This document shows, piece after piece, positions 3,935 through 52,586 of a stretch of DNA of 64,000 nucleotides; within the stretch, counting starts at the first letter, position 1; each line of letters starts with the position of its first letter. This DNA comes from Escherichia coli. Lineage in GTDB: Bacteria > Pseudomonadota > Gammaproteobacteria > Enterobacterales > Enterobacteriaceae. Location: NCBI RefSeq assembly GCF_001677475.2, contig NZ_CP015229.1; one strand, 5' to 3'. The notes under the pieces are model-generated. The model was not told the DNA's origin and did no database searches. It saw only the letters and a program-made list of their open reading frames with translations. Position numbers and translations under genes: made by a program.

Positions 3935-3965
3935 GAAGCCGCCTGTTCAGGCGGCTTCGTTGTTT
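3935..3965 (+). terminator. Intrinsic terminator after exuT (GC hairpin gaagccgcc/ggcggcttc then T-rich tract)
   Basis: Perfect 9 bp stem with 6 nt loop followed by gttgttt. Confidence 0.7.
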
Positions 3966-3988
3966 ATGCGTTTGCCCGGCCTATAGGG

Positions 3989-5074
3989 TTAATTGATGGT
4001 TGGTAGAGATGGAGTAAAAATTACCGATAGTTTCCCCATGTAATACCCGGCCTGTTTATCCATCACGCTAAATTTATCGACCGCCAGGGTTAATGGCGTC
4101 GGCACACACATGACAGCGTAACGAATTCCTGGCAGCACAACCGGACGAACGCGCTTCAGGTTGATGCTGTTCCAGACCATATTTTCATTGTTGCGAACAT
4201 CAATTTGCCCGCCCGTTTCCGGGTTATACATTTTTACCCGATAATCAATGCGTTCTGAGGCATCTGTCGATGTTCCTCCCTGACGATAGATCGAGAAGTC
4301 GCCATCTCTTCGTCCGGCAGCCGGGCGACCTTCATCTTTAAGCTGGATTTCATAACTGATAGCGTTGCCGTTAAAACCATCGTACAGGCACATATCCAGC
4401 GTGGTCAGATCCTGAGCATAGTTACTGCCATTGACGCTCCCCGTCGGGTGTAGATCCAACTGTACCCGTGGCGTGGCGTGGGCAAACTCAGGAAAGAAGA
4501 TATCGATATGGTTGGGATCGAGCGTATTAAGCGTGATATCCGCAACATAATCTGTTCCAGGAGTGGAAAAACGTAATTTAGCAGAACCTTCCCAGACGCC
4601 GCCGATTGGTAATTTTTTCATTTCGGCTTGTTCAAGATACAGGGTTACCGGCTTTGCAGTGGCAAGATGTTGAACATTATCATTACCCTTGCAGTAATAG
4701 CCATTACCATCAGTCAAATTCAGTTGCTTGCTCCATCCCTTGCATGGCCCTTCATCCCAGACTTCTGCGTTCATATAGCCCGTCAGTTTCACAGGCCAAC
4801 GCATACCGCTGCGCTTTTCAGTCAAGTAAATCTGCACTTTTGTCGTGTTTCCAGATGATGTGCAGGTCTGCTGCATATCAGAGAAGTTGCACTGATACCA
4901 TGCCCATGTAGTGTTGTAGTTGTACGCCGGTGGGGCTTCTTTGTTCCAGAAATAGTAATTCGCCCTCCCCGTCGCCAAATCGTAAGTTACATCCGCCGTA
5001 ACATTTTGGGCTGCCTGAACACCCGCAACCGAGCCCCAAAAGCAAAATAGTATGGCAATCAATCGCTTTCTCAT
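3989..5074 (-). CDS. Fimbrial tip/minor adhesin, class 5 (CfaE/CooD-like), 361 aa with signal peptide
   Basis: Size and motifs (KLPIGGVW, DLHPTG, DMCLYDGF, GYYMGKLSVIFTPS) resemble CfaE/CooD as recalled; last gene of a chaperone-pilin-usher-adhesin operon. Confidence 0.8.
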   Translation of the reverse strand: MRKRLIAILFCFWGSVAGVQAAQNVTADVTYDLATGRANYYFWNKEAPPAYNYNTTWAWYQCNFSDMQQTCTSSGNTTKVQIYLTEKRSGMRWPVKLTGYMNAEVWDEGPCKGWSKQLNLTDGNGYYCKGNDNVQHLATAKPVTLYLEQAEMKKLPIGGVWEGSAKLRFSTPGTDYVADITLNTLDPNHIDIFFPEFAHATPRVQLDLHPTGSVNGSNYAQDLTTLDMCLYDGFNGNAISYEIQLKDEGRPAAGRRDGDFSIYRQGGTSTDASERIDYRVKMYNPETGGQIDVRNNENMVWNSINLKRVRPVVLPGIRYAVMCVPTPLTLAVDKFSVMDKQAGYYMGKLSVIFTPSLPTIN

Positions 5075-7755
5075 GGTGCAACCTCCCTTTGCGCCGTTTG
5101 CACACTTTCGCGTAATTTAGGCTGTTTTAACTGCGCCTGAACCTGAATCGACTCTGGCAATTGCGAATAACTCACGACGCTACAAGTCACATCGCCGCTG
5201 TAACGAATGCTGGCGCGTTTCTTCACAACAGTCAGCGGACATTTAAGGAATTCGTGTCCGGAAAGCAGATACAGTTCTTTATCATTGCCGCTAATTTCCA
5301 GCGTAAATCCGCCATCTTCAGCCACCAATAACATGGTGCTGTTCAGACCAATCAGCGGGAATTTCTCTACTGATGCTGGCAATAACAAGCGACCAATATA
5401 GTTGTAGTTAAAGCTGGCAGTGACTTCGCGATAACGTAACTTACCGGGCAGCAACATTAATTCCCGGTTTCCCGCGCCATTGATAATATTGGTTGTTCCC
5501 TGCTGATTGCCCTGGTTGCTGTCCCTGACGTCAACAAAGCCCGACTGGAATCCAGCATAGGGGAACAACACACTGTCACTTTGACCAAGTTGCAGAGTTC
5601 TGCTGCCCGCAACCCGAGCTTCGAATTGCAGATCCTGGCTCTCTTCATCCTGTTCAGTAAATCCTTTTACATCGACTAATACAGCGCCGAGCAGATCATC
5701 TGTTCCACTGGCTCCCAGATTAATTCCGTAACGACTCACCGCCAGTGTGGAACTGTAAGTCCCTGTAAAGGCAGAAAGATGATCATGGTTCTTGCGATCG
5801 TAACTGTCTGATACGGTTCCGTTGAGATTACCGTACTGCCCTTCCCAACGACCATTAACCGCACTGTTTATGGTATCGGTGTTCAGGCCACCGACGGTTA
5901 CGCCAAGTTCTTTATGGCTGAATGAATCATTATAAAAGGTATGCGATAACTGCCATGAAGTTTGGTCGCCATCCTGATCGCTATAGCGATAGTCAGTCGA
6001 AACATTGGTTGAGTGACTGTTATTATTGCTGTCCATCGTTGGTGTATCAGATAACGAAAACGATAAGTACAATCCGTTGTCGTCGTTATCTCCGCCGTTG
6101 TCGTTACGATGGAAAACCCCGACAGAAGTGCTCAAAATCCAGTCACGCATTATAAAAGCGCGAGACGCGCTAAGCTGTACGGTTTCAGAAATACTTTGCG
6201 CAGAAGTCTGGCGAAGATAGTTATTTTCAAAACTCTGCTGTTTGTCCCAGCGTAAGCTGTCGTCGGTGTTATTTTGCGTGCGGGTATAACCCAGCATCAG
6301 GTTCCAGCCGATAAGATTCTGTGAAATCGTAGCGGATATGCTTTCATAACAGCTTAAGGCGTTGTAGCTATCTCTGCTGTCGGTTGTACAAGCATCTCCG
6401 TCGGAGTTGGTACGATAAAAGCCCAGCGTCGGCCATCCCGAATTACTCCAGTTAACCTGCTGCATATCACCTTTGCCGCCATCGTCATTGCGGAACAGGC
6501 TGGCACCTATGGCAAGATTCCCCGCCCCGCCTAAATCCGCCGTCCAGTTATTACCTAACTCGAAAGCATTCACATCATCGGCATTCGCCAGCCCTGCGTA
6601 GAGCTCATATTGTGGATGTAACGGCAGGCGAAAACCCAGTTGATAAGCTGAACTTTCGTCATCGGCAGCCTGGGAGGTGGTTTTACCGGCCTGTAAGAAC
6701 CACTGCGCATTTCCGTCCGTCAGCCCCCCTGTTTTGGTAAAAGGGACAAGTTCAGTGCGGGTGAGTTGGTTGTTCTCATAAACTTTTAACGCCACGCTGT
6801 AGCTGCCTGGCGGAAAGGAACCAGTATCAATAAATTGCGAACCACTATTGAGATAAAACGATCCCAGAAGTTGTTCATTACGATAAGCGTCAACACGAGA
6901 ATTGCGCGAAAGCAGGACCATTACTGGCGTTCCTTGCTGACTCTGCGCCTGGTTTAAATAACTGAGTGTTGACCCGATACGCATTCCATCGATTGCACCG
7001 AGTGGCAGAAAGTTAAAAGTAAAATTCCCGCCTTGTGCATTAAATAGCGTGCGGTTGTCCATTCGCCCCGCCTGCACATAATAACGACGTAAAAAATCAT
7101 AACGATAATAGAGATCGCTGACATCAGCATTATTATCGCTGACATCTTCTGCCTCATAGCCATTGAAATTCCAGTGCCCGCCAATATAACTATTCTCTGT
7201 GACACCCAGCGCACCATTGCCCTGAATGGAGAACGATTGGTAATCATCCTGCACCAGCACGTTAATATCCTGCTGATGAATAAATGCATTAATCGCGTTT
7301 CTGTCTGGATTTAAATATAGCGATTTTGAATTTAACGAGGAACTCCATTGGGGATTCAGAAAGAGGGTGGCGGAACTCTCTTCATCATTAAAAATAATGT
7401 CAACAGAATCGGTATTGAGAAAGCCACATCCTGAATCGGTCTGCGCAAAACCACAAGCCAGTTCACCATGACGCACCAGTGGTTGTGCCAGTCTCGCTTT
7501 TACGGCTTGAGTGATTTTTTGGTCTTTGGTATCCAGCTCCAGCTTATTATATAAACTTGCTGAATCCAGAAATGTTACGGCATCAAGATTAACCATTGCA
7601 TAATATTTACCGAGACTTTTCCCGGCATAATAGACTTCAATATACTCCTGCTGTCCCTGTGCAATAACCTCAAACCCAGCGGGAATTTTAGTTAATGCTG
7701 CCTTTGCCGGGCTGAGACTCGCCAGGATCAAAAGAGCCAGTAATTTTTTATCCAT
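5071..7755 (-). CDS. Fimbrial outer-membrane usher (CooC/CfaC-like), about 894 aa
   Basis: ORF 5071..7809 (912 aa); start preferred at MDKKLLALLILASLSPAKA (signal peptide, ATG at 7755, RBS agggt); large beta-barrel-type protein between pilin and adhesin genes. Confidence 0.85.
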   Translation of the reverse strand: MDKKLLALLILASLSPAKAALTKIPAGFEVIAQGQQEYIEVYYAGKSLGKYYAMVNLDAVTFLDSASLYNKLELDTKDQKITQAVKARLAQPLVRHGELACGFAQTDSGCGFLNTDSVDIIFNDEESSATLFLNPQWSSSLNSKSLYLNPDRNAINAFIHQQDINVLVQDDYQSFSIQGNGALGVTENSYIGGHWNFNGYEAEDVSDNNADVSDLYYRYDFLRRYYVQAGRMDNRTLFNAQGGNFTFNFLPLGAIDGMRIGSTLSYLNQAQSQQGTPVMVLLSRNSRVDAYRNEQLLGSFYLNSGSQFIDTGSFPPGSYSVALKVYENNQLTRTELVPFTKTGGLTDGNAQWFLQAGKTTSQAADDESSAYQLGFRLPLHPQYELYAGLANADDVNAFELGNNWTADLGGAGNLAIGASLFRNDDGGKGDMQQVNWSNSGWPTLGFYRTNSDGDACTTDSRDSYNALSCYESISATISQNLIGWNLMLGYTRTQNNTDDSLRWDKQQSFENNYLRQTSAQSISETVQLSASRAFIMRDWILSTSVGVFHRNDNGGDNDDNGLYLSFSLSDTPTMDSNNNSHSTNVSTDYRYSDQDGDQTSWQLSHTFYNDSFSHKELGVTVGGLNTDTINSAVNGRWEGQYGNLNGTVSDSYDRKNHDHLSAFTGTYSSTLAVSRYGINLGASGTDDLLGAVLVDVKGFTEQDEESQDLQFEARVAGSRTLQLGQSDSVLFPYAGFQSGFVDVRDSNQGNQQGTTNIINGAGNRELMLLPGKLRYREVTASFNYNYIGRLLLPASVEKFPLIGLNSTMLLVAEDGGFTLEISGNDKELYLLSGHEFLKCPLTVVKKRASIRYSGDVTCSVVSYSQLPESIQVQAQLKQPKLRESVQTAQREVAP

Positions 7756-7780
7756 GGCAACCCTGTAATCCATAACAACG

Positions 7781-7820
7781 ACTAAAATAGTTAAAATAAG
7801 GGAGGACAAGCCCCCCCTTT
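7781..7820 (-). terminator. Intra-operon hairpin (GGGGGG/CCUCCC stem, U-rich tail) between the pilin and usher genes; possible attenuator
   Basis: Minus-strand transcript ggggggg-cttgtc-ctccctt followed by auuuuaacuauuuu; position matches pilin/usher attenuators seen in other chaperone-usher operons. Confidence 0.4.
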
Positions 7821-7846
7821 ATTACGTATTAATTCTGTTATCCGGA

Positions 7847-8347
7847 TTAGATATCCTGGGACAGATAGATGCTTACCACACCACGGTAAATACCGGTTTC
7901 CAGTACACCTTTGGTGGTCTGAGCAAACATCAGGTTTTTAGCCAAAGAACCGTTGGTTAAAGCATCGGAAGCAAAAATTTTGGTTGCTTCGAAAGTGGTA
8001 GCGGCATCAGACTTGATTTCAGTACCACCCCAGGTCACAGTCAGCGGAACAGTTTTGCTGCCGTCCAGGTTATGAACCAGTTGCGCAGGGGAAACCAACT
8101 GCATTTTAATGTCTTTAGTAACATCGTTAGACCAAATTTTAGTCATCAACTGATAAGATTGCAGACCCTGACCCGGCAGATATTGCATTTCAACTGCTTT
8201 CGGCAGTGCGCTGTTATCGGTTTGCGTCATATCCAGGGCGGCATCAACGTTAGCTGTTACAGTAATATCTTTTTGTACTGCTAACGCGGAGCCTGCTACA
8301 GAGAATAACGCTGCTACCAGAAGAGATTTTGCAAATGCCTTTTTCAT
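7847..8347 (-). CDS. Major fimbrial subunit, class 5 (CooA/CfaB-like pilin), 166 aa with signal peptide
   Basis: ITVTANVDAALDMTQTDNSALP and C-terminal YRGVVSIYLSQ resemble CooA ISVTASVDPTVDLLQSDGSALP ... YQGLVSIIL as recalled. Confidence 0.85.
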   Translation of the reverse strand: MKKAFAKSLLVAALFSVAGSALAVQKDITVTANVDAALDMTQTDNSALPKAVEMQYLPGQGLQSYQLMTKIWSNDVTKDIKMQLVSPAQLVHNLDGSKTVPLTVTWGGTEIKSDAATTFEATKIFASDALTNGSLAKNLMFAQTTKGVLETGIYRGVVSIYLSQDI

Positions 8348-8376
8348 TACTATTCCTTCGTTTATGACAATGATAA

Positions 8377-9093
8377 TTAATGGATCGCCAGCTCAAACTC
8401 GCCATTATCCTTAGTGATCCAGTTATTATATTTGACAACGATCTTGTCGTAGCCAGATATGCTTTCAAGATTTATTTCCTGACCAGGGAAGATATTTTTA
8501 TTTACGGTCTGCATCTTACAATTATCTTTGCTATTATTTTTGCAATAAGCGATCGTTAAAAGTTTTAAACGTTGATTCCCTGCATTAAATAATTTTTTGG
8601 CAGGATTTACTTCTAACTTAGCAATAGGTTGTTGGGGTGGAACACTAACAACAATCCCCCAAATCAAGTTAACTGTTAACTGCATAGAGAGATCTTTTTT
8701 ATCTGTGGCAACGTCATCAATACTGGGAACTGCTTCAAATTTAACGCGGTAATTTTTCTCTTTTTGCTCTGGTTCCATTGCGACAAAGCGCACGGTTTTG
8801 CTGCTACCGGCTGGTAAGGCGAATTTGGGTGGCATAACGACCAGATGATTTGCATCACCGGATTTAATCTCAACTTCATTTTCCTGAGGCGTCGATGGAT
8901 TATCTATACGGAATACTGTCGCCTTGATATACTGAACTTCATTACTTTTAGATATTACACGAACGTTGCCTTCACCCTGACTATTAATAGAAACAGCCAT
9001 AGGATAAACAGTCATATTTGACTGTGCAAAAAAAGGAGCGAACACGAATAAAAGCGGCGTAAGCCGTGATAAGAGTTTAATTTTCGCCACCAT
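8377..9093 (-). CDS. Periplasmic fimbrial chaperone, class 5 (CooB/CfaA-like), 238 aa
   Basis: IYPMAVS, KSNEVQYIKATV and YRVKFEAV resemble CooB IYPISKD, KSKEIQYIKIYT and YRVYFEAV as recalled; first gene of the operon. Confidence 0.85.
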   Translation of the reverse strand: MVAKIKLLSRLTPLLFVFAPFFAQSNMTVYPMAVSINSQGEGNVRVISKSNEVQYIKATVFRIDNPSTPQENEVEIKSGDANHLVVMPPKFALPAGSSKTVRFVAMEPEQKEKNYRVKFEAVPSIDDVATDKKDLSMQLTVNLIWGIVVSVPPQQPIAKLEVNPAKKLFNAGNQRLKLLTIAYCKNNSKDNCKMQTVNKNIFPGQEINLESISGYDKIVVKYNNWITKDNGEFELAIH

Positions 9094-9342
9094 ATAGAAT
9101 TGATCTTACAAAATTGTTTCAAAAAAGTTAGTGCATTAGAAATGTAGATTTATTGTAAGTCAATATAAAAAATCATTTTTAGTTAATATTAATTTAAAAA
9201 GCGAAAAATTAAGTTACTGAAACATAGTAATTTTCACAATAGCGACGCTTAATTTTTAGGAATTTATAAATATTCACAATGTTAATTAAATACATTATTT
9301 CAATCACCATATTTATATATGAACAATGGCATACCCATAAAT
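9094..9342 (-). promoter_or_regulatory. Strongly AT-rich leader/promoter region of the fimbrial operon
   Basis: About 250 bp of very low GC with A/T tracts immediately upstream of the chaperone start; exact promoter elements not assigned. Confidence 0.4.
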
Positions 9343-9362
9343 AAAGTGGTATGATAACTTTG
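9343..9362. promoter_or_regulatory. Candidate ExuR operator upstream of exuR (aaagtggtatgataactttg)
   Basis: Matches the 2364..2383 motif at about 16 of 20 positions; sits 27 bp upstream of the exuR start. Confidence 0.45.
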
Positions 9363-9388
9363 TCCGCATTCCATTCCGGGAGACGCAT

Positions 9389-22446: not shown

Positions 22447-22836
22447 TTACGCACTACGTACTGCGATGGCTTCAATTTCCAGCTTCACATCTTTCGGCAA
22501 ACGCGCGACCTGCACACAGCTCCGGGTCGGGTAGGTCGCCTGATGCTCATCGAAGAACTGCTTATAGACTTCATTGATGGTGGCAAAATCATTCAGATCG
22601 GTGATGAACACGGTCATCTTGATGATATCACCCACGCTCAGCCCGGCAGCAACCACGATCGCTTTGACGTTTTCGAGGCTTAAACGCGCCTGATCTTGCA
22701 CATCAGCCGGGATCTCACCGGTCTGTGGGCAAACCGGAATTTGCCCGGAGGTGAAGACCATGCTGCCTAAATCAACGCCCTGAACATAAGGGCCGATTGC
22801 GCCTGGGGCACGTTGCGTTTCGATAATCTTTTTCAT
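22447..22836 (-). CDS. tdcF: Enamine/imine deaminase TdcF (RidA family), 129 aa
   Basis: ORF 22447..22899; start at MKKIIETQRAPGAIGPYVQGVDLG. Confidence 0.92.
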   Translation of the reverse strand: MKKIIETQRAPGAIGPYVQGVDLGSMVFTSGQIPVCPQTGEIPADVQDQARLSLENVKAIVVAAGLSVGDIIKMTVFITDLNDFATINEVYKQFFDEHQATYPTRSCVQVARLPKDVKLEIEAIAVRSA

Positions 22837-22849
22837 ACATCCTCCGGCG

Positions 22850-25144
22850 TCAGAGCGCCTGGGTAAAGGTACGTGAAATAACATCCTGTTGCTGTTCACG
22901 GGTCAGTGCGTTGAAGCGCACGGCGTAGCCAGAGACACGGATTGTCAGGTTAGGATATTTTTCCGGGTGCTCGATGGCATCCAGCAGCATTTCCCGATTC
23001 ATTACGTTGACGTTGAGGTGTTGACCGCCTTCGACATCCGCTTCGTGGTGGAAATACCCATCCAGCAGGCCGACAAGGTTGGTTTTACGTACTGGATCTT
23101 CTTTGCCCAGCGCCGCAGGCACGATCGAGAAGGTGTACGAGATCCCGTCTTTGGCGTAGGTGAACGGCAGTTTGGCCACCGACGTCAGCGAGGCTACCGC
23201 ACCTTTGCGGTCACGACCGTGCATCGGGTTAGCGCCCGGTGCGAACGGTGTACCCGCGCGACGACCGTCTGGCGTGTTACCGGTTTTCTGGCCGTACACC
23301 ACGTTAGAAGTGATAGTCAGAATCGACTGGGTGGGGACGGCGTTGCGATAGGTTGGCAGCGCTTTAATTTTCTTCATAAAGCGTTCAACCAGGTCGCAGG
23401 CAATACTGTCTACGCGCTCGTCGTTGTTGCCGTACTGCGGATATTCGCCGTCGATTTCAAAGTCCACCGCCAGGCCGTTTTCGTCACGGATTGGTTTCAC
23501 GCGGGCATATTTGATAGCGGACAGGGAGTCTGTTGCCACCGACAGGCCCGCGATGCCGCACGCCATCGTGCGATAGACATCACGATCGTGTAGCGCCATC
23601 AGCGAAGCTTCGTAGCTGTACTTGTCGTGCATGTAGTGAATGATATTCAGCGCGCTGATGTACTGCACCGCCAGCCAGTCCATGAAGTGATCGAGACTGT
23701 CCATCACTTTGTCGTAATCCAGCACGTCGTCCATCAGCGGTGCCATTTTCGGACCGACCTGAATCTTCAGCTTCTCATCCACCCCGCCGTTAATTGCGTA
23801 CAGCAGCGTTTTCGCCAGGTTAGCGCGTGCACCAAAGAACTGCATTTGCTTACCAATCACCATTGGGCTGACGCAGCAGGCAATCGCGTAATCGTCGCTG
23901 TTGAAGTCAGTGCGCATCAGATCGTCGTTTTCATACTGCAAGGAAGAGGTGACGATCGACACCTGCGCGGCATATTTTTTGAAGGCAATCGGTAATTCTT
24001 CCGACCAAAGAATGGTCAGGTTAGGTTCCGGTGCAGGCCCCATAGTGTGCAGGGTGTGCAAATAGCGGAAGGAGTTTTTGGTCACCAGCGTACGACCGTC
24101 CAGCCCCATCCCGCCGATCACTTCCGTCGCCCAGATGGGGTCGCCGGAGAACAGCGAATCAAATTCCGGTGTACGCAGGAAGCGTACCATACGGATCTTC
24201 ATGATGAAGTGATCGATCAGTTCCTGTGCCTGCTGCTCATTGAGGACGCCAGCTTTAAAGTCGCGCTCAATGTAGATATCGAGGAACGATGCCGTGCGCC
24301 CCAGCGACATCGCGCCGCCATTTTGCGATTTCACTGCCGCCAGATAAGCGAAGTAGAGCCACTGCACCGCTTCCTGTGCATTCTGCGCCGGGCGAGAGAT
24401 ATCAAAGCCATATTTCGCCGCCATTTCCTGAATCTGCAACAGCGCATGACGATGCTCTGCCAGCTCCTCACGCAGACGGATGGTGGCTTCCAGATCCTCG
24501 CCTTTTTCCAGACGAGACTGGAGATCGGCAAATTGCAGTTCGCGTTCACGTACCAGATAACTGATGCCATACAGCGCTACGCGGCGATAGTCACCGATAA
24601 TGCGCCCACGGCCATAGCCATCTGGTAAACCGGTCAGCACGCCAGATTTACGGCAGCGCAGCATATCCGGTGAGTAAACATCAAATACACCCTGGTTATG
24701 GGTTTTACGCAGATCGGTAAACAGATATTCAAATTCACTGTCCATTTCACGGCCATAGGCGTGGAATGAACTTTTAATCATATTAATGCCACCGAACGGA
24801 TGCAGCGCACGCTTTAATGGCGCATCCGTTTGCAGGCCCACTATTTTTTCCAGCGGCTGGTTAATATATCCCGCATCATGAGCGGTAATGGTGGTAGCAA
24901 TATTAGTATCGAAATCAACCGGCGCGTGGGTTGCGTTTTCGATACGAATGCCTTCCATCACTTTTTCCCACAATTCCGTGGTGGCTGGCGTCGCTTCGGC
25001 GAGAAAAGATTCATCACCTTCATACGGTGTATAGTTATGTTGAATAAAATCGCGGACATTAATTTCGTTTTTCCAGTCCGTACCTTTAAAGCCAAGCCAT
25101 GCGTCGGCGTACAGCTTATCGCTGGTATCAATATCTACCTTCAT
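22850..25144 (-). CDS. tdcE: 2-ketobutyrate/pyruvate formate-lyase TdcE, 764 aa
   Basis: Glycyl-radical enzyme with C-terminal RVSGYAVRF motif; [21 protein letters not shown]... Confidence 0.93.
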
Positions 25145-32328: not shown

Positions 32329-32547
32329 ACTTAATAACTTCTTACAAAGTCTATTATTAATACCGTAGATATTCATGCATCTTACCCTGTGCACCAAAAG
32401 CAAAAACTTATCGACGCGGTTTTTTACGTACATCAGGTGAAACTGACCGATAAGCCGCTTTCTTTTGGGTATAGTGTCGTGGACAGTCATTCATCTTTCT
32501 GCCCCTCCAAAAGCAAAAACCCGCCGAAGCGGGTTTTTACGTAAATC

Positions 32548-32924
<377 letters not shown>

Positions 32925-37613: not shown

Positions 37614-39185
37614 ATGGCCAACATCGAAATCAGACAAGAAACGCCAACTGCGTTTTATATAAAAGTTCACGACACAGATAATGTGGCAATTATTGTTAAT
37701 GATAATGGCCTGAAAGCAGGAACGCGTTTTCCGGATGGGCTGGAATTAATTGAACATATTCCCCAGGGGCATAAAGTCGCATTGCTGGACATTCCGGCTA
37801 ATGGTGAAATTATTCGTTATGGCGAAGTGATTGGTTACGCCGTGCGCGCAATCCCACGCGGAAGCTGGATCGACGAATCAATGGTTGTACTACCGGAAGC
37901 GCCGCCGTTACACACGCTGCCACTGGCAACCAAAGTCCCGGAACCCTTACCGCCGCTGGAAGGATACACCTTTGAGGGCTATCGCAATGCCGATGGCAGC
38001 GTGGGCACTAAAAACCTGCTCGGCATCACCACCAGCGTCCACTGTGTAGCAGGCGTGGTGGACTATGTAGTAAAAATCATTGAACGCGATCTGCTACCGA
38101 AATACCCGAACATCGATGGCGTGGTGGGGCTGAATCATTTGTACGGCTGTGGCGTGGCGATTAACGCACCGGCGGCAGTTGTGCCTATTCGTACCATCCA
38201 CAATATTTCGCTGAACCCTAACTTTGGCGGCGAAGTAATGGTGATTGGTCTGGGTTGTGAAAAGTTGCAGCCTGAGCGCCTGCTGACTGGAACGGATGAT
38301 GTGCAAGCTATTCCAGTAGAAAGCGCCAGCATTGTCAGTTTGCAGGATGAAAAGCATGTCGGCTTTCAGTCCATGGTTGAGGATATTTTGCAGGTCGCCG
38401 AACGCCATTTGCACAAACTGAATCAACGGCAGCGAGAAACCTGTCCGGCTTCAGAACTGGTTGTCGGCATGCAGTGCGGTGGCAGCGATGCGTTTTCTGG
38501 CGTAACGGCAAACCCGGCGGTTGGGTATGCGTCTGATCTACTGGTGCGCTGCGGCGCAACGGTGATGTTTTCAGAAGTCACGGAAGTGCGTGACGCGATC
38601 CATCTGCTGACACCACGCGCAGTGAACGAAGAGGTCGGCAAACGGCTGCTGGAGGAGATGGAGTGGTACGATAACTATCTCAATATGGGAAAAACCGACC
38701 GCAGCGCCAACCCTTCGCCGGGCAACAAGAAAGGCGGTCTGGCAAATGTGGTGGAGAAAGCGCTCGGCTCCATTGCTAAATCGGGTAAAAGCGCAATTGT
38801 TGAAGTGCTGTCGCCTGGTCAACGCCCGACTAAACGCGGATTAATTTACGCCGCGACGCCAGCCAGCGATTTTGTCTGTGGCACGCAACAGGTGGCTTCG
38901 GGTATCACCGTGCAAGTGTTTACGACCGGTCGCGGTACGCCGTACGGCCTGATGGCGGTACCCGTCATTAAAATGGCAACCCGCACCGAGCTGGCGAACC
39001 GCTGGTTTGATTTAATGGATATTAATGCGGGCACCATCGCTACCGGCGAAGAAACTATTGAAGAGGTGGGCTGGAAGTTGTTCCACTTTATTCTCGACGT
39101 CGCCAGCGGGAAGAAGAAAACCTTCTCAGATCAATGGGGACTGCATAACCAGCTGGCGGTGTTTAACCCAGCACCGGTGACCTGA
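37614..39185 (+). CDS. garD: Galactarate dehydratase GarD, 523 aa
   Basis: [39 protein letters not shown]...; divergent from garPLRK. Confidence 0.92.
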
Positions 39186-39210
39186 TTTCTTTTGGAACTT
39201 TCCTCGCAAA

Positions 39211-39237
39211 ACATGGCCTTAGTGCCATGTTTTTATT
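39211..39237 (+). terminator. Intrinsic terminator after garD
   Basis: acatggc-cttagt-gccatgt hairpin followed by ttttatt. Confidence 0.65.
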
Positions 39238-39333
39238 GTTTAAAGTCCCCACGTCCATTAATAATGCATTTGCATTACCTTAGTTCAAGCTTATAATTTG
39301 AGCAGAAAACAGGCTGTAAAAGGACAGTGAATC

Positions 39334-39669
39334 ATGCCCGCTAATGCTCGCTCTCACGCTGTACTGACCACTGAATCAAAGGTCACGATACGCGGACAAA
39401 CAACTATCCCCGCGCCAGTGCGTGAGGCCTTAAAACTGAAGCCAGGCCAGGACAGCATTCATTACGAAATTCTGCCTGGTGGGCAAGTATTTATGTGCCG
39501 ACTGGGAGATGAACAGGAGGATCATACTATGAATGCATTTTTGCGTTTTCTGGATGCAGATATCCAGAACAACCCGCAAAAAACTCGTCCATTCAACATT
39601 CAACAAGGAAAGAAACTTGTCGCTGGCATGGACGTCAACATTGATGATGAGATTGGCGACGACGAATAA
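39334..39669 (+). CDS. prlF: Type II antitoxin PrlF (SohA), 111 aa
   Basis: MPANARSHAVLTTESKVTIRGQTTIPAPVREALKLKPGQ (AbrB/SpoVT-type DNA-binding N-terminus), acidic C-terminus. Confidence 0.9.
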   Translation: MPANARSHAVLTTESKVTIRGQTTIPAPVREALKLKPGQDSIHYEILPGGQVFMCRLGDEQEDHTMNAFLRFLDADIQNNPQKTRPFNIQQGKKLVAGMDVNIDDEIGDDE

Positions 39670-40133
39670 TGGATTTTCCACAAAGGGTTAATGGTTGGGC
39701 GCTATATGCTCATCCCTGTTTTCAGGAAACCTACGACGCTTTAGTTGCCGAAGTCGAGACATTAAAGGGAAAAGATCCTGAAAATTATCAGAGAAAAGCC
39801 GCCACAAAGTTATTGGCGGTAGTCCATAAAGTGATTGAGGAGCATATCACGGTCAATCCATCATCACCGGCATTCCGTCATGGCAAGTCGTTAGGCTCTG
39901 GGAAAAATAAAGACTGGTCACGGGTAAAATTTGGTGCTGGTCGTTATCGTCTCTTCTTTCGTTATAGTGAAAAAGAGAAAGTCATCATTCTGGGATGGAT
40001 GAACGATGAAAACACTCTGCGCACCTACGGTAAAAAAACAGATGCCTATACCGTATTCAGCAAAATGTTAAAAAGAGGACATCCTCCTGCCGACTGGGAA
40101 ACCCTCACCCGAGAGACAGAAGAAACCCATTGA
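39669..40133 (+). CDS. yhaV: Type II toxin YhaV (ribonuclease), 154 aa
   Basis: MDFPQRVNGWALYAHPCFQETYDALVAEVE...; start overlaps the prlF stop (ATGA). Confidence 0.9.
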   Translation: MDFPQRVNGWALYAHPCFQETYDALVAEVETLKGKDPENYQRKAATKLLAVVHKVIEEHITVNPSSPAFRHGKSLGSGKNKDWSRVKFGAGRYRLFFRYSEKEKVIILGWMNDENTLRTYGKKTDAYTVFSKMLKRGHPPADWETLTRETEETH

Positions 40134-40187
40134 TGGTGTTCACAATGCCCGCCGAACGCATTCGTGTTGACCAGCGGGCACCCTTTC

Positions 40188-40997
40188 TCACTCCCCGACC
40201 AGAATCACTTCAACCCCAGCCTTTCGCAGGCCTTCCAGACTATCCGCAGGAATGCCTTCATCAACAATGATCATGTCGATACGTTGAGTATCAATGATCT
40301 TATGTAAACTGGAACGATTGAACTTACTGGAATCGGTGACCACGATGATCCGTTCCGCAACTTCGCACATCCGACGGTTTAAACGGGCTTCATCTTCATT
40401 ATGCGTGCTGACACCGCGCTCCAGATCAATCGCATCTACGCCAAGAAACAGCATATCGAAGTGGTAATTTTGCAGCGATTGTTCAGCCTGATCGCCGTAA
40501 AAAGATTGCGACTGACGGCGCAAATGCCCGCCGGTCATCAGCAGCTCAACGCCTTCCGCTTCCAGCAACGCATTAGCCACGTTCATACCGTTGGTCATCG
40601 CAATTACGTCAGTGTGCTTGCGCATCAGACGAGCAATCTCAAAAGTGGTGGTCCCGGAATCGAGGATCACCCGATGACCTGGCTGAATCAACTCAACGGC
40701 AGCTTTCGCAACGCTGCGTTTCATCGCGGTGTTCAGCGCGCTTTTATCTTCCACTGATGGCTCGACTGACGGCGTCGTGCTATCGCAGATCAACGCGCCG
40801 CCATAGGCACGCACAGCGATCCCCTGCTTTTCCAGAAACGCCAGATCGTTGCGGATCGTCACAGTAGATACGCCATACAATGCCGACAGATCGTTAACCT
40901 GCACACTCCCTTGCTGTCGCAGACGCTGAATGATCTGTTCTCGTCGCTCGCTGGTGCCTGTCATTCGCTTCTCACCTGAAGCGTCGGTATTACTCAT
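40188..40997 (-). CDS. agaR: DeoR-family repressor AgaR, 269 aa
   Basis: [52 protein letters not shown]. Confidence 0.92.
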
Positions 40998-50905: not shown

Positions 50906-51673
50906 ATGGAACGAGGCACTGCTTCTGGCGGTGCCTCTTTACTTAAGGAATTTCATCCTGTGCAAACCCTTCAGCAAGTTGAAAACTATACGGCGTTAAG
51001 TGAACGTGCCAGCGAATATTTATTGGCCGTGATCCGTAGCAAACCGGATGCCGTGATTTGCCTGGCGACCGGAGCCACGCCATTACTGACGTATCATTAT
51101 CTGGTAGAAAAAATCCACCAGCAGCAGGTTGATGTCAGCCAACTAACCTTCGTCAAGCTCGACGAATGGGTGGATCTGCCATTAACTATGCCTGGCACCT
51201 GCGAAACTTTCCTGCAACAGCATATCGTGCAGCCGCTGGGGCTACGTGAAGACCAGCTCATCAGCTTTCGCTCCGAAGAGATAAATGAGACAGAGTGCGA
51301 ACGGGTAACGAACCTGATTGCGCGCAAAGGCGGTCTGGATTTATGCGTTCTCGGATTGGGGAAAAACGGTCATCTTGGGCTGAACGAACCGGGAGAAAAC
51401 CTGCAACCGACCTGCCATATCAGTCAACTTGATGCCAGAACACAGCAACATGAGATGTTAAAAACCGCGGGCCGTCCCGTGACTCGTGGGATCACCTTAG
51501 GCCTGAAGGATATTCTCAATGCCCGCGAAGTTTTGTTACTGGTGACTGGCGAAGGAAAGCAGGATGCGACAGAACGTTTTCTCACGGCTAAAGTCTCCAC
51601 CGCTATCCCGGCTTCGTTTTTATGGCTGCATAACTATTTCACATGCATGATTGATGAGATGTGTCGTCGTTAA
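50906..51673 (+). CDS. agaI: Putative galactosamine-6-phosphate deaminase/isomerase AgaI (NagB-like), 255 aa
   Basis: ATG directly follows the agaD stop; MERGTASGGASLLKEFHPVQTLQQVENYTALSERASEYLLAV. Confidence 0.88.
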   Translation: MERGTASGGASLLKEFHPVQTLQQVENYTALSERASEYLLAVIRSKPDAVICLATGATPLLTYHYLVEKIHQQQVDVSQLTFVKLDEWVDLPLTMPGTCETFLQQHIVQPLGLREDQLISFRSEEINETECERVTNLIARKGGLDLCVLGLGKNGHLGLNEPGENLQPTCHISQLDARTQQHEMLKTAGRPVTRGITLGLKDILNAREVLLLVTGEGKQDATERFLTAKVSTAIPASFLWLHNYFTCMIDEMCRR

Positions 51674-51675
51674 CT

Positions 51676-51719
51676 CGCCTGCTACAGGCGTTGCAACGCT
51701 ATTCCTGCTGCGACGCCTG
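51676..51719. terminator. Inverted repeat between convergent agaI and rsmI (possible bidirectional terminator)
   Basis: acaggcgt ... acgcctgt 8 bp arms with a long loop; weak as a classic terminator. Confidence 0.3.
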
Positions 51720-51722
51720 TAA

Positions 51723-52586
51723 TCACTCTCCCTGCTGCTCCAGTGCATACTTATACAGCGCATTTTTCTTCACGCCGTGAATTTCTGCGGCCAGCGCCGC
51801 CGCTTTTTTCAGCGGCAGTTCTGCCTGTAGCAGCGCCAGCGTGCGCAGGGCATCGGCGGGTAAGTCTTCTTCCTGTGCTTTATGGCCTTCGACAATCAGT
51901 ACCATTTCGCCTTTGCGACGGTTTTCATCTTCTTTGACCCACGCCAGCAGCTCGCCAACGGGCGCGCCGTGAATGGTTTCCCAGGTTTTGGTCAGCTCAC
52001 GCGCCAGAACGACGTAGCGGGATTCGCCTAATACCGCAACGATATCTTCCAGGCTATCTAACAGACGGTGGGTAGATTCATAAAAAATCAGCGTGCGCGG
52101 CTCCGCTTCAATGGCTTTTAGCGCATCACGGCGGCCTTTTGATTTGGCAGGTAAAAAGCCTTCATAACAAAAACGATCGGATGGTAAACCCGCGGCGCTT
52201 AACGCAGTGATAGCAGCACACGGCCCGGGTAGCGGCACCACGAGAATCCCCGCTTCACGGCAGGTACGCACCAGATGGTAGCCAGGATCGTTAATTAGCG
52301 GCGTTCCGGCATCGGAAACCAGCGCAATGTTTTGCCCCTCTTGCAGCTTCGCCAGCAGCGTTTCGGCTTTTTGTTGTTCGTTATGGTCGTGCAGCGCAAA
52401 CAACCGAGCATTAATCCCAAAATGTTGCAGCAATAAACCGGTGTGACGCGTATCCTCGGCGGCAATCAGATCAACGGCCTGTAATACCTCCAACGCACGC
52501 TGGGTGATATCCGCCAGATTGCCGATTGGCGTCGGTACAATGTAAAGCTGGCCCTGAGAATTATCCGCCGATTGGTGTTGTTTCAT
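51723..52586 (-). CDS. rsmI: 16S rRNA C1402 2'-O-methyltransferase RsmI, 287 aa
   Basis: [48 protein letters not shown]. Confidence 0.92.

Follow-up and report, generated by a model that had tools for sequence, protein, structure and literature searches.

The prlF-yhaV toxin-antitoxin locus between garD and agaR in Escherichia coli, its likely operator and a heptanucleotide repeat in prlF

Two overlapping reading frames lie between garD and agaR in a stretch of 64,000 nucleotides of Escherichia coli DNA (contig NZ_CP015229.1; we call the whole stretch the window), and an earlier note, made from the letters of the sequence, took them for the toxin-antitoxin pair prlF-yhaV. The question that the locus raises is whether an intact module is really present, how its two products might be kept in balance, and whether growth arrest is the right way to think about its role.

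The identity and setting of the pair

We have very little doubt that the two frames are the prlF-yhaV operon, a type II toxin-antitoxin system of the E. coli chromosome, and that it is intact and stands where it usually does, between garD and agaR. The ORF listing bears out the coordinates first assigned to the two frames, the precedence of the antitoxin and the overlap of the genes:

39334..39669, + strand: prlF (sohA), antitoxin and autorepressor gene; ORF of 111 aa, assigned by PF15937, NF007429 and identity to K-12 b3129
39669..40133, + strand: yhaV, toxin gene for a RelE-fold ribosome-dependent mRNA endonuclease; ORF of 154 aa, assigned by PF11663 and identity to K-12 b3130

The names originally given to both proteins are confirmed at curated family thresholds. 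PrlF matches the Pfam family PrlF_antitoxin (PF15937) with an E-value of 6.2e-42 and 142.2 bits (cut-off 32) and the NCBIfam PrlF equivalog NF007429 with 1.4e-50 and 170 bits (cut-off 125), and YhaV matches Toxin_YhaV (PF11663) with 7.8e-54 and 181.9 bits (cut-off 35), covering profile positions 1-137 of 138. Direct comparison with MG1655 shows that PrlF (111 of 111 residues) and YhaV (154 of 154) are 100% identical to the K-12 proteins. The earlier note had named inactivating substitutions in the catalytic residues of YhaV as the observation that would count against its reading; identity to the tested K-12 proteins means that such substitutions are absent, there being none at all relative to K-12, catalytic or other. 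The acidic tail ascribed to PrlF is also present (MDVNIDDEIGDDE), with seven acidic residues among the last 13.

At the nucleotide level the window departs from MG1655 at five positions in 1,002 bp (39199, 39201, 39246, 40115 and 40181), all of them non-coding or silent (the change at 40115 is synonymous) and none functionally relevant as far as can be judged from the sequence. The operator, the -35 and -10 boxes and the Shine-Dalgarno sequence described below are untouched by these differences, and the K-12 locus has the same gene order, 1-nt overlap, flanks, promoter, operator and Shine-Dalgarno sequence. When these 1,002 bp are used as a query, a match to the locus is found in 5,167 of 5,426 complete E. 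coli genomes (about 95%), and RefSeq uses the names prlF/yhaV throughout the matches listed.

The flanking genes are those found in K-12 and other strains. Upstream, garD (galactarate dehydratase) corresponds to an ORF of 523 aa that ends at 39185, and downstream agaR, an ORF of 269 aa on the - strand (40188..40997), is convergent with yhaV. The spacers of 148 bp to garD and 54 bp to agaR equal the intergenic lengths published for K-12. The placement of the pair between gar and aga was thus given correctly, but the description of aga as a sugar-acid locus was not, since aga is an N-acetylgalactosamine/galactosamine (amino-sugar) locus. The pair has already been characterised and its proteins are identical to those of K-12; its identification adds nothing new, and the locus serves here mainly as a positive control for the first-stage reading of the DNA.

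Some variation among strains can be recorded for the surrounding sequence. Positions 39200-40229 (1,030 bp) show zero differences from strain W5-6, although the flanks differ by about 2%, and the 25 kb from 39001 to 64000 have a best match to any complete E. coli genome of 98.3%. This patch free of divergence points to recombination or to an unusually low diversity within its allele class. A prlF-yhaV allele that is 97.5-98.6% identical occurs in about one third of genomes. Elsewhere, the window differs from K-12-like strains in having a CS1-type fimbrial operon between exuT and exuR and in lacking yraHIJK.

The likely operator and the probable coupling of translation

The elements that would govern expression of the pair are as follows:

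39208..39233, + strand: garD intrinsic terminator, a hairpin AAAACATGGC-6 nt-GCCATGTTTT followed by a T-run; perfect 10-nt inverted repeat, returned by the terminator scan
39262..39277, no strand assigned: candidate PrlF or PrlF-YhaV operator TAATGCAttTGCATTA, palindrome TAATGCA-tt-TGCATTA; perfect inverted repeat of 7+7 nt overlapping the -35 box
39269..39297, + strand: predicted sigma-70-type promoter; -35 TTTGCA at 39269-39274, 17-nt spacer, -10 TATAAT at 39292-39297
39320..39324, + strand: prlF Shine-Dalgarno sequence AAGGA, 9 nt before the ATG; anti-SD duplex -5.3 kcal/mol
39667..39671, + strand: TAATG stop/start overlap of prlF and yhaV, the probable site of translational coupling; read directly from the sequence
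40146..40180, no strand assigned: possible terminator hairpin shared by the convergent yhaV and agaR, weak; predicted stem GCCCGCC...GCGGGC

The garD terminator has a predicted RNA fold of -16.9 kcal/mol (z = -3.6) and would insulate the prlF promoter from garD read-through. The predicted prlF promoter, which has ten of twelve consensus matches and is the best in the region, could also be read with an alternative -35 box (TTGCAT, 39270-39275), and its -35/-10 arrangement is retained in Cedecea and in a Salmonella plasmid. A promoter-like site inside the operon (39641-39670, nine of twelve matches) is unsupported, the number of such sites in the region being within the range expected by chance. 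At the other end, the predicted fold of the 40146-40180 hairpin does not stand out from those of shuffled sequences (z = -1.27), and the terminator scan missed it; we regard it only tentatively as a terminator of yhaV and agaR.

A search for palindromes upstream of prlF had been suggested at the outset, and it yields the phylogenetically conserved palindrome at 39262-39277, the only match to the pattern in the window. Taken alone, such a match is not improbable if up to two mismatches are allowed, and it then arises in 40 of 100 shuffles. Its assignment as the likely operator of PrlF is made because its core, AATGCAnTTGCATT, is conserved upstream of homologues where the DNA is otherwise unrelated. 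A scan for YhaV loci that required exact peptide words returned eight, a sample for footprinting and not a census. The core is found 51-79 nt upstream of prlF or its homologue in six loci, namely those of the window, E. albertii, Pseudocitrobacter, Cedecea davisae, the Salmonella plasmid and a Pantoea megaplasmid. The Pseudocitrobacter locus, which encodes a YhaV 83% identical to that of the window, has the core upstream of its prlF. In Cedecea davisae (YhaV 65%), where the genomic context differs, it forms part of a perfect 20-bp palindrome, GGTAATGCAATTGCATTACC; the Salmonella plasmid (YhaV 66%) carries it upstream of the prlF homologue, and the Pantoea megaplasmid (YhaV 55%) has two tandem copies of the operator. 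In Cedecea and on the two plasmids, nothing else in the upstream DNA is related. The assignment agrees with the report that a PrlF2-YhaV4 complex binds a promoter palindrome cooperatively (PMC7781912). The 16-bp operator, through this core, may be used to find PrlF-family operators elsewhere.

The two genes meet in the sequence GACGAATAATGGATT, read as GAA-TAA-TGG, in which the prlF stop codon TAA (39667-39669) shares its last nucleotide with the yhaV start codon (39669-39671). The earlier note was right that stop and start overlap, but it gave the motif as ATGA, an overlap of four nucleotides, where the junction reads TAATG and one nucleotide is shared. A TAATG or TGATG overlap is found also in E. 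albertii, Pseudocitrobacter, Cedecea and the Salmonella plasmid. No Shine-Dalgarno sequence precedes yhaV; the 20 nt before its ATG pair only weakly with the anti-SD sequence (-2.7 kcal/mol), and in a position too far upstream. Because the genes overlap in this way and the second lacks a Shine-Dalgarno sequence, the arrangement suggests that ribosomes finishing prlF go on to translate yhaV, and this fits published data for a single transcript from which the antitoxin is translated more than the toxin (PMC5535158). Both features are relevant for the modelling of toxin-to-antitoxin ratios.

In proposing a mechanism for the operon, we join what is observed in this DNA, namely which genes these are, how they are laid out, that the likely operator is conserved and what fold is predicted for the toxin, to the toxicity, neutralisation, PrlF2-YhaV4 complex, DNA binding and ribosome dependence that come from the literature on the identical K-12 proteins. 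The sigma-70 promoter (-35 39269-39275, -10 39292-39297) would drive a bicistronic prlF-yhaV mRNA. PrlF, as a dimer of the AbrB/MazE type, would bind the palindrome over the -35 box and repress its own operon, with YhaV acting as co-repressor. Since prlF has its own Shine-Dalgarno sequence and yhaV has none, its ATG overlapping the prlF stop codon as TAATG, synthesis of the toxin would depend on synthesis of the antitoxin and stay below it. Free YhaV, a RelE-fold endonuclease, would cut mRNA in the ribosomal A site and so bring about arrest of translation and growth, and PrlF would neutralise it by direct binding. In K-12, growth arrest by YhaV and rescue by PrlF are documented (PMC8546651; PMC7781912); the pair was described by Schmidt et al. 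2007 (J Mol Biol 372:894), as cited in PMC7781912 and PMC8546651. That first report is listed in a table of PMC8546651 as having called the cleavage ribosome-independent; ribosome-dependent cleavage of mRNA by YhaV is attributed to Choi et al. 2017 and Culviner et al. 2021 in later accounts (PMC8546651; PMC7781912; PMC11980606).

Protein folds and related systems

Structural prediction places YhaV among the RelE/ParE toxins. The AlphaFold2 model, built on a family alignment of 38 sequences, has a pLDDT of 90.4 and a pTM of 0.87, and when it is compared with the PDB by Foldseek, ranks 1-45 (E < 0.5) are taken without exception by toxins, or toxin domains, of the RelE/ParE type, among them PfiT, RelE, HigB, HigB2, YoeB, ParE and the RelE-like Cami1 (best E-value 1.2e-4); unrelated folds rank only below these. 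The predicted structure of YhaV thus has the RelE/ParE fold. No chain of the RelE family was found in the PDB with the YhaV sequence (phmmer, E <= 1) or with the 38-sequence profile (E <= 10). Because there is no match at the level of sequence, membership of the superfamily rests on the predicted fold together with the Pfam and literature classification. The active-site residues of RelE are K52, K54, R61, R81 and Y87. The YhaV family has 26 invariant residues, including W10 and a set of basic and aromatic ones (R85, K87, R92, R98, R118, Y120 and K123), and every one of them is present in the YhaV of the window. One substitution among them, W10G, was selected in laboratory chemostats as a presumed loss-of-function allele (PMC5960147). 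As a point of record, the structure labelled 'YhaV, PDB 2KHE' in a figure of one review (PMC7781912) is Thermus RelE.

For PrlF the signal is weaker. The MazE_antitoxin and AbrB models match residues 15-39, in each case below the curated threshold (PF04014, 19.5 bits with a cut-off of 24.7; TIGR01439, 27.1 bits with a cut-off of 28.3). Searching the PDB with a PrlF profile gives three AbrB-family regulators as best matches, weakly (E = 0.28-0.43); the single sequence gives no match there, and neither PrlF nor YhaV, for which no solved structure exists, is detectably similar in sequence to the solved RelE or MazE structures. The AlphaFold2 monomer model, of low confidence (pLDDT 62), has a beta-alpha-beta-beta N-terminus. 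These matches are consistent with an AbrB/MazE assignment of residues 15-39 that stays below threshold in three independent tests.

PrlF-YhaV has been said to combine parts of two classical families, a MazE-type antitoxin and a RelE-like toxin (PMC3021852), and the comparison with known systems can be arranged along these lines. On the side of the toxin, RelBE, HigBA, YefM-YoeB and PfiAT have the fold of the YhaV model in common with it, as well as ribosome-dependent cleavage (according to the literature), an antitoxin-first order and autoregulation. RelE, Mycobacterium RelE1 and RelE2, HigB2 and PfiT match the model with Foldseek probabilities of 0.97-1.00 and TM-scores of 0.6-0.79 (target-normalised). 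YhaV differs from RelE-type toxins in being about 60 residues longer, with extra helices at both the N- and C-terminus of the model. Its antitoxin differs too, RelB being of the ribbon-helix-helix type whereas PrlF, on its sub-threshold matches, is of the AbrB/MazE type. On the side of the antitoxin, MazE has an acidic C-terminal tail in common with PrlF, but its partner in MazEF is MazF, whereas the partner of PrlF is the RelE-like YhaV.

Pairs of the PrlF/YhaV family with the same two-gene architecture occur on plasmids, including Salmonella p21-SA00706-0, Pantoea megaplasmids and plasmids of the Roseobacter group, and the family is found on 328 plasmid records, of which 175 are predicted to be conjugative. 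The two pairs examined, from Salmonella and Pantoea, have the operator core and toxins with 54-66% identity. In the Pantoea pair the operator is present in two tandem copies and the genes are separated by 6 nt, whereas the pair of the window has one operator and a 1-nt overlap. Such plasmid-borne pairs are presumably addiction modules.

A heptanucleotide repeat and the role of the module

Within prlF there is one further feature that bears on what the operon does:

39592..39605, + strand: (TTCAACA)x2 tandem repeat inside prlF, the wild-type copy number and a known slippage hotspot; seen in the sequence

Duplication to one copy more is a recurrent laboratory mutation of prlF, and has been described as the exact Lon-activating mutation of earlier prlF studies (PMC7686311; PMC12107188). 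The classical prlF1 insertion lies near the 3' end of prlF (PMC7781912), and this fits the +1-copy allele.

These alleles are among the reasons to consider that the principal role of the locus is regulatory, with PrlF (SohA) modulating Lon and phenotypes of the envelope and of proteostasis, and YhaV serving mainly as co-repressor. The gene was discovered as a suppressor in protein export (prlF1), and the database names SohA and htrA suppressor protein persist. The 7-bp duplication raises Lon activity, has been selected repeatedly in laboratory evolution, and alters ompF and sodB expression and drug resistance (PMC7781912; PMC7686311; PMC12107188); moreover, reviews list the condition that induces YhaV as unknown (PMC7781912). 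However, the phenotypes linked to Lon were seen with mutant alleles, which de-repress the operon as well and could act through YhaV (PMC7686311). The link to Lon is mechanistically unexplained, a regulatory role is compatible with the toxin-antitoxin mechanism, and the sequence itself offers nothing that bears on it. As the main role of the locus we think it improbable.

A role in abortive infection against phage seems to us very unlikely. Several type II systems with toxins of the RelE superfamily do defend against phage (PMC9519451; PMC11980606), a prlF-yhaV homologue adjoins phage antirepressor genes on the Salmonella plasmid, and a member of the family appears in one Vibrio phage record. 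Yet neither PrlF nor YhaV has a match among the 5,027 PADLOC defence models (PADLOC-DB v2), even at E <= 1, the locus is set among core metabolic genes, outside any defence island or prophage, and the literature examined contains no phage phenotype of prlF-yhaV. The first reading had also held the pair to be the sole toxin-antitoxin or defence-type module in the window, and this has held up. PADLOC finds no complete defence system among 78 non-overlapping ORFs of the window, an Rfam scan returns rnpB (RNase P RNA) only, and RefSeq annotation of the syntenic regions names no further toxin-antitoxin pair. The individual PADLOC matches can be set aside. The single strong one, to PD-T4-2_B (2e-30), is TdcF in the tdc operon, a domain-level match confined to the C-terminal RidA/L-PSP domain (positions 168-292 of 294); AgaR and ExuR match WYL, CasR and Csa3 as generic helix-turn-helix models; and the matches of YqjD (to LeoC), YhbW and UbiT are at chance level or domain level.

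That the operon is a decayed remnant, with an inactive toxin or uncoupled genes, is hardly credible. Decay is common among chromosomal toxin-antitoxin loci; in some E. coli genomes the locus is missing or prlF is disrupted, in one Escherichia sp. genome yhaV lies divided between two contigs, and chemostats readily select yhaV alleles that have lost function (PMC5960147). Here, however, both proteins are 100% identical to a K-12 pair of shown toxicity and neutralisation, nothing in the promoter, operator, Shine-Dalgarno sequence or overlap is damaged, and 26 of 26 family-invariant YhaV residues are present.

Beyond the laboratory, (TTCAACA)n proves to be a real length polymorphism of natural E. 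coli and Shigella. Proteins in the databases are exactly equal to simulated alleles with n = 5, 7, 8, 9, 10, 11, 13, 16, 17, 19 and 25, and further proteins indicate n = 12, 18, 20 and 30 or more; between them the expanded alleles occupy all three reading frames. Shigella sonnei is the source of many of these proteins, and some bear the wrong name 'HsdR'. One complete E. coli genome has 19 copies and a prlF called a pseudogene by PGAP, so that expanded alleles are mis-called in more than one way, and metagenome contigs carry 3, 5 and 18 copies. The repeat is absent in E. albertii, two other Escherichia sp. genomes, E. coli strain E69, Pseudocitrobacter and Cedecea. We found no description of natural (TTCAACA)n expansions in the literature searched.

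We raise, as a speculation that we consider rather less probable than its negation, that the repeat in E. coli and Shigella may act as an acquired, reversible contingency switch. Were this true, any change in copy number not divisible by three would exchange the acidic tail of PrlF, with which it binds the toxin, for another sequence, and alleles in the frame of n = 1 mod 3 would read through the yhaV start codon to 39691. Changes in copy number would de-repress the operon and alter Lon activity, drug tolerance and possibly the activity of the toxin, heritably and yet reversibly. In this way the repeat could make a toxin-antitoxin module a source of heritable heterogeneity in the tolerance of stress and drugs.

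Divergence at prlF-yhaV and across its surroundings

Across the 1,030 bp from 39200 to 40229 the window shows 0 differences from E. coli W5-6, while either flank differs at about 1 site in 50, a rate at which roughly 15-20 differences would be expected in a segment of this length. The extent of the segment is exactly that of the prlF promoter, prlF, yhaV and the spacer. This absence of differences between divergent flanks suggests that the identity to W5-6 derives either from a recombination patch or from a sweep of the prlF-yhaV allele. About one-third of genomes carry another class of allele, with an identity of 97.5-98.6%.

The 25 kb from 39001 to 64000 reach a top identity of only 98.3% among the 5,426 complete E. 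coli genomes of RefSeq, so the source strain belongs to an E. coli lineage with no close representative in that set. Over the 7-kb stretch around prlF-yhaV, identity is about 91-92% both to E. albertii and to E. coli strain E69.

The heptanucleotide repeat in prlF

Within prlF lies a short tandem repeat, also located in several comparison loci:

39592-39605, inside prlF: 7-bp tandem repeat, (TTCAACA)x2
L016 591-723, and L019, L021 and L024: prlF repeat in comparison loci

The window carries the wild-type count of two copies. Natural prlF alleles of E. coli and Shigella contain from 3 to more than 30 copies of TTCAACA and represent all three reading frames; the complete genome NZ_CP123329.1 has a tract of 19 copies, and metagenome contigs have tracts of 3, 5 and 18. 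Simulated alleles with 5-25 copies have exact matches among database proteins. A change of +1 copy is the recurrent laboratory mutation and fits the classical prlF1 allele; in the literature searched, no paper describing the expanded natural alleles was found. The repeat is absent from prlF in E. albertii, in the other Escherichia sp. genomes compared and in other genera.

Homologous loci and PDB entries

In Escherichia sp. MOD1-EC7003, two contigs (L010 and L011) share a split yhaV whose reading frame diverges past about residue 73, and the DNA 5' of the putative prlF operator is also unlike the garD terminator; the locus has probably been disrupted by an insertion sequence or rearranged. The Salmonella plasmid homologue (L014 1-1153) adjoins genes for the phage antirepressors Rha and KilAC, a neighbourhood suggestive of a phage-plasmid. 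On a Pantoea plasmid (L015 1030-1135), the homologue has two putative operator palindromes in tandem and an orphan Phd/YefM antitoxin gene directly upstream.

Sequence comparison detects no relative of YhaV or PrlF among the chains of the PDB. PDB 2KHE, labelled 'YhaV monomer' in a review (PMC7781912), is the RelE of Thermus thermophilus.

Fimbrial operons and a partial defence-system match

Two further features of the window are considered here:

3958-9371, between exuT and exuR: CS1-type (alternate chaperone-usher) fimbrial operon of four genes
22450-22899, minus strand: tdcF, a RidA/L-PSP-family deaminase

The operon, which K-12-like strains lack, encodes a major subunit, a chaperone, a TcfC-like usher and a CfaE/CblD-like tip adhesin. 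Among the 5,426 complete E. coli genomes its top identity reaches just 88.7%, so the operon is a divergent allele. Conversely, K-12-like strains carry yraHIJK (about 5.5 kb) between agaI and rsmI, whereas this fimbrial operon is missing from the window (51630-51730), as it is from strain 50579417. The yhaC-rnpB interval (32394-32570) gives several alignments to the reference strain, staggered relative to one another, which indicates tandem repeats of about 90-115 bp with a copy number unlike that of W5-6.

TdcF matches the PADLOC model PD-T4-2_B at 2e-30, with the match limited to positions 168-292 of the 294 in the profile, its C-terminal domain. This partial match is an easy origin of false-positive 'defence gene' calls.
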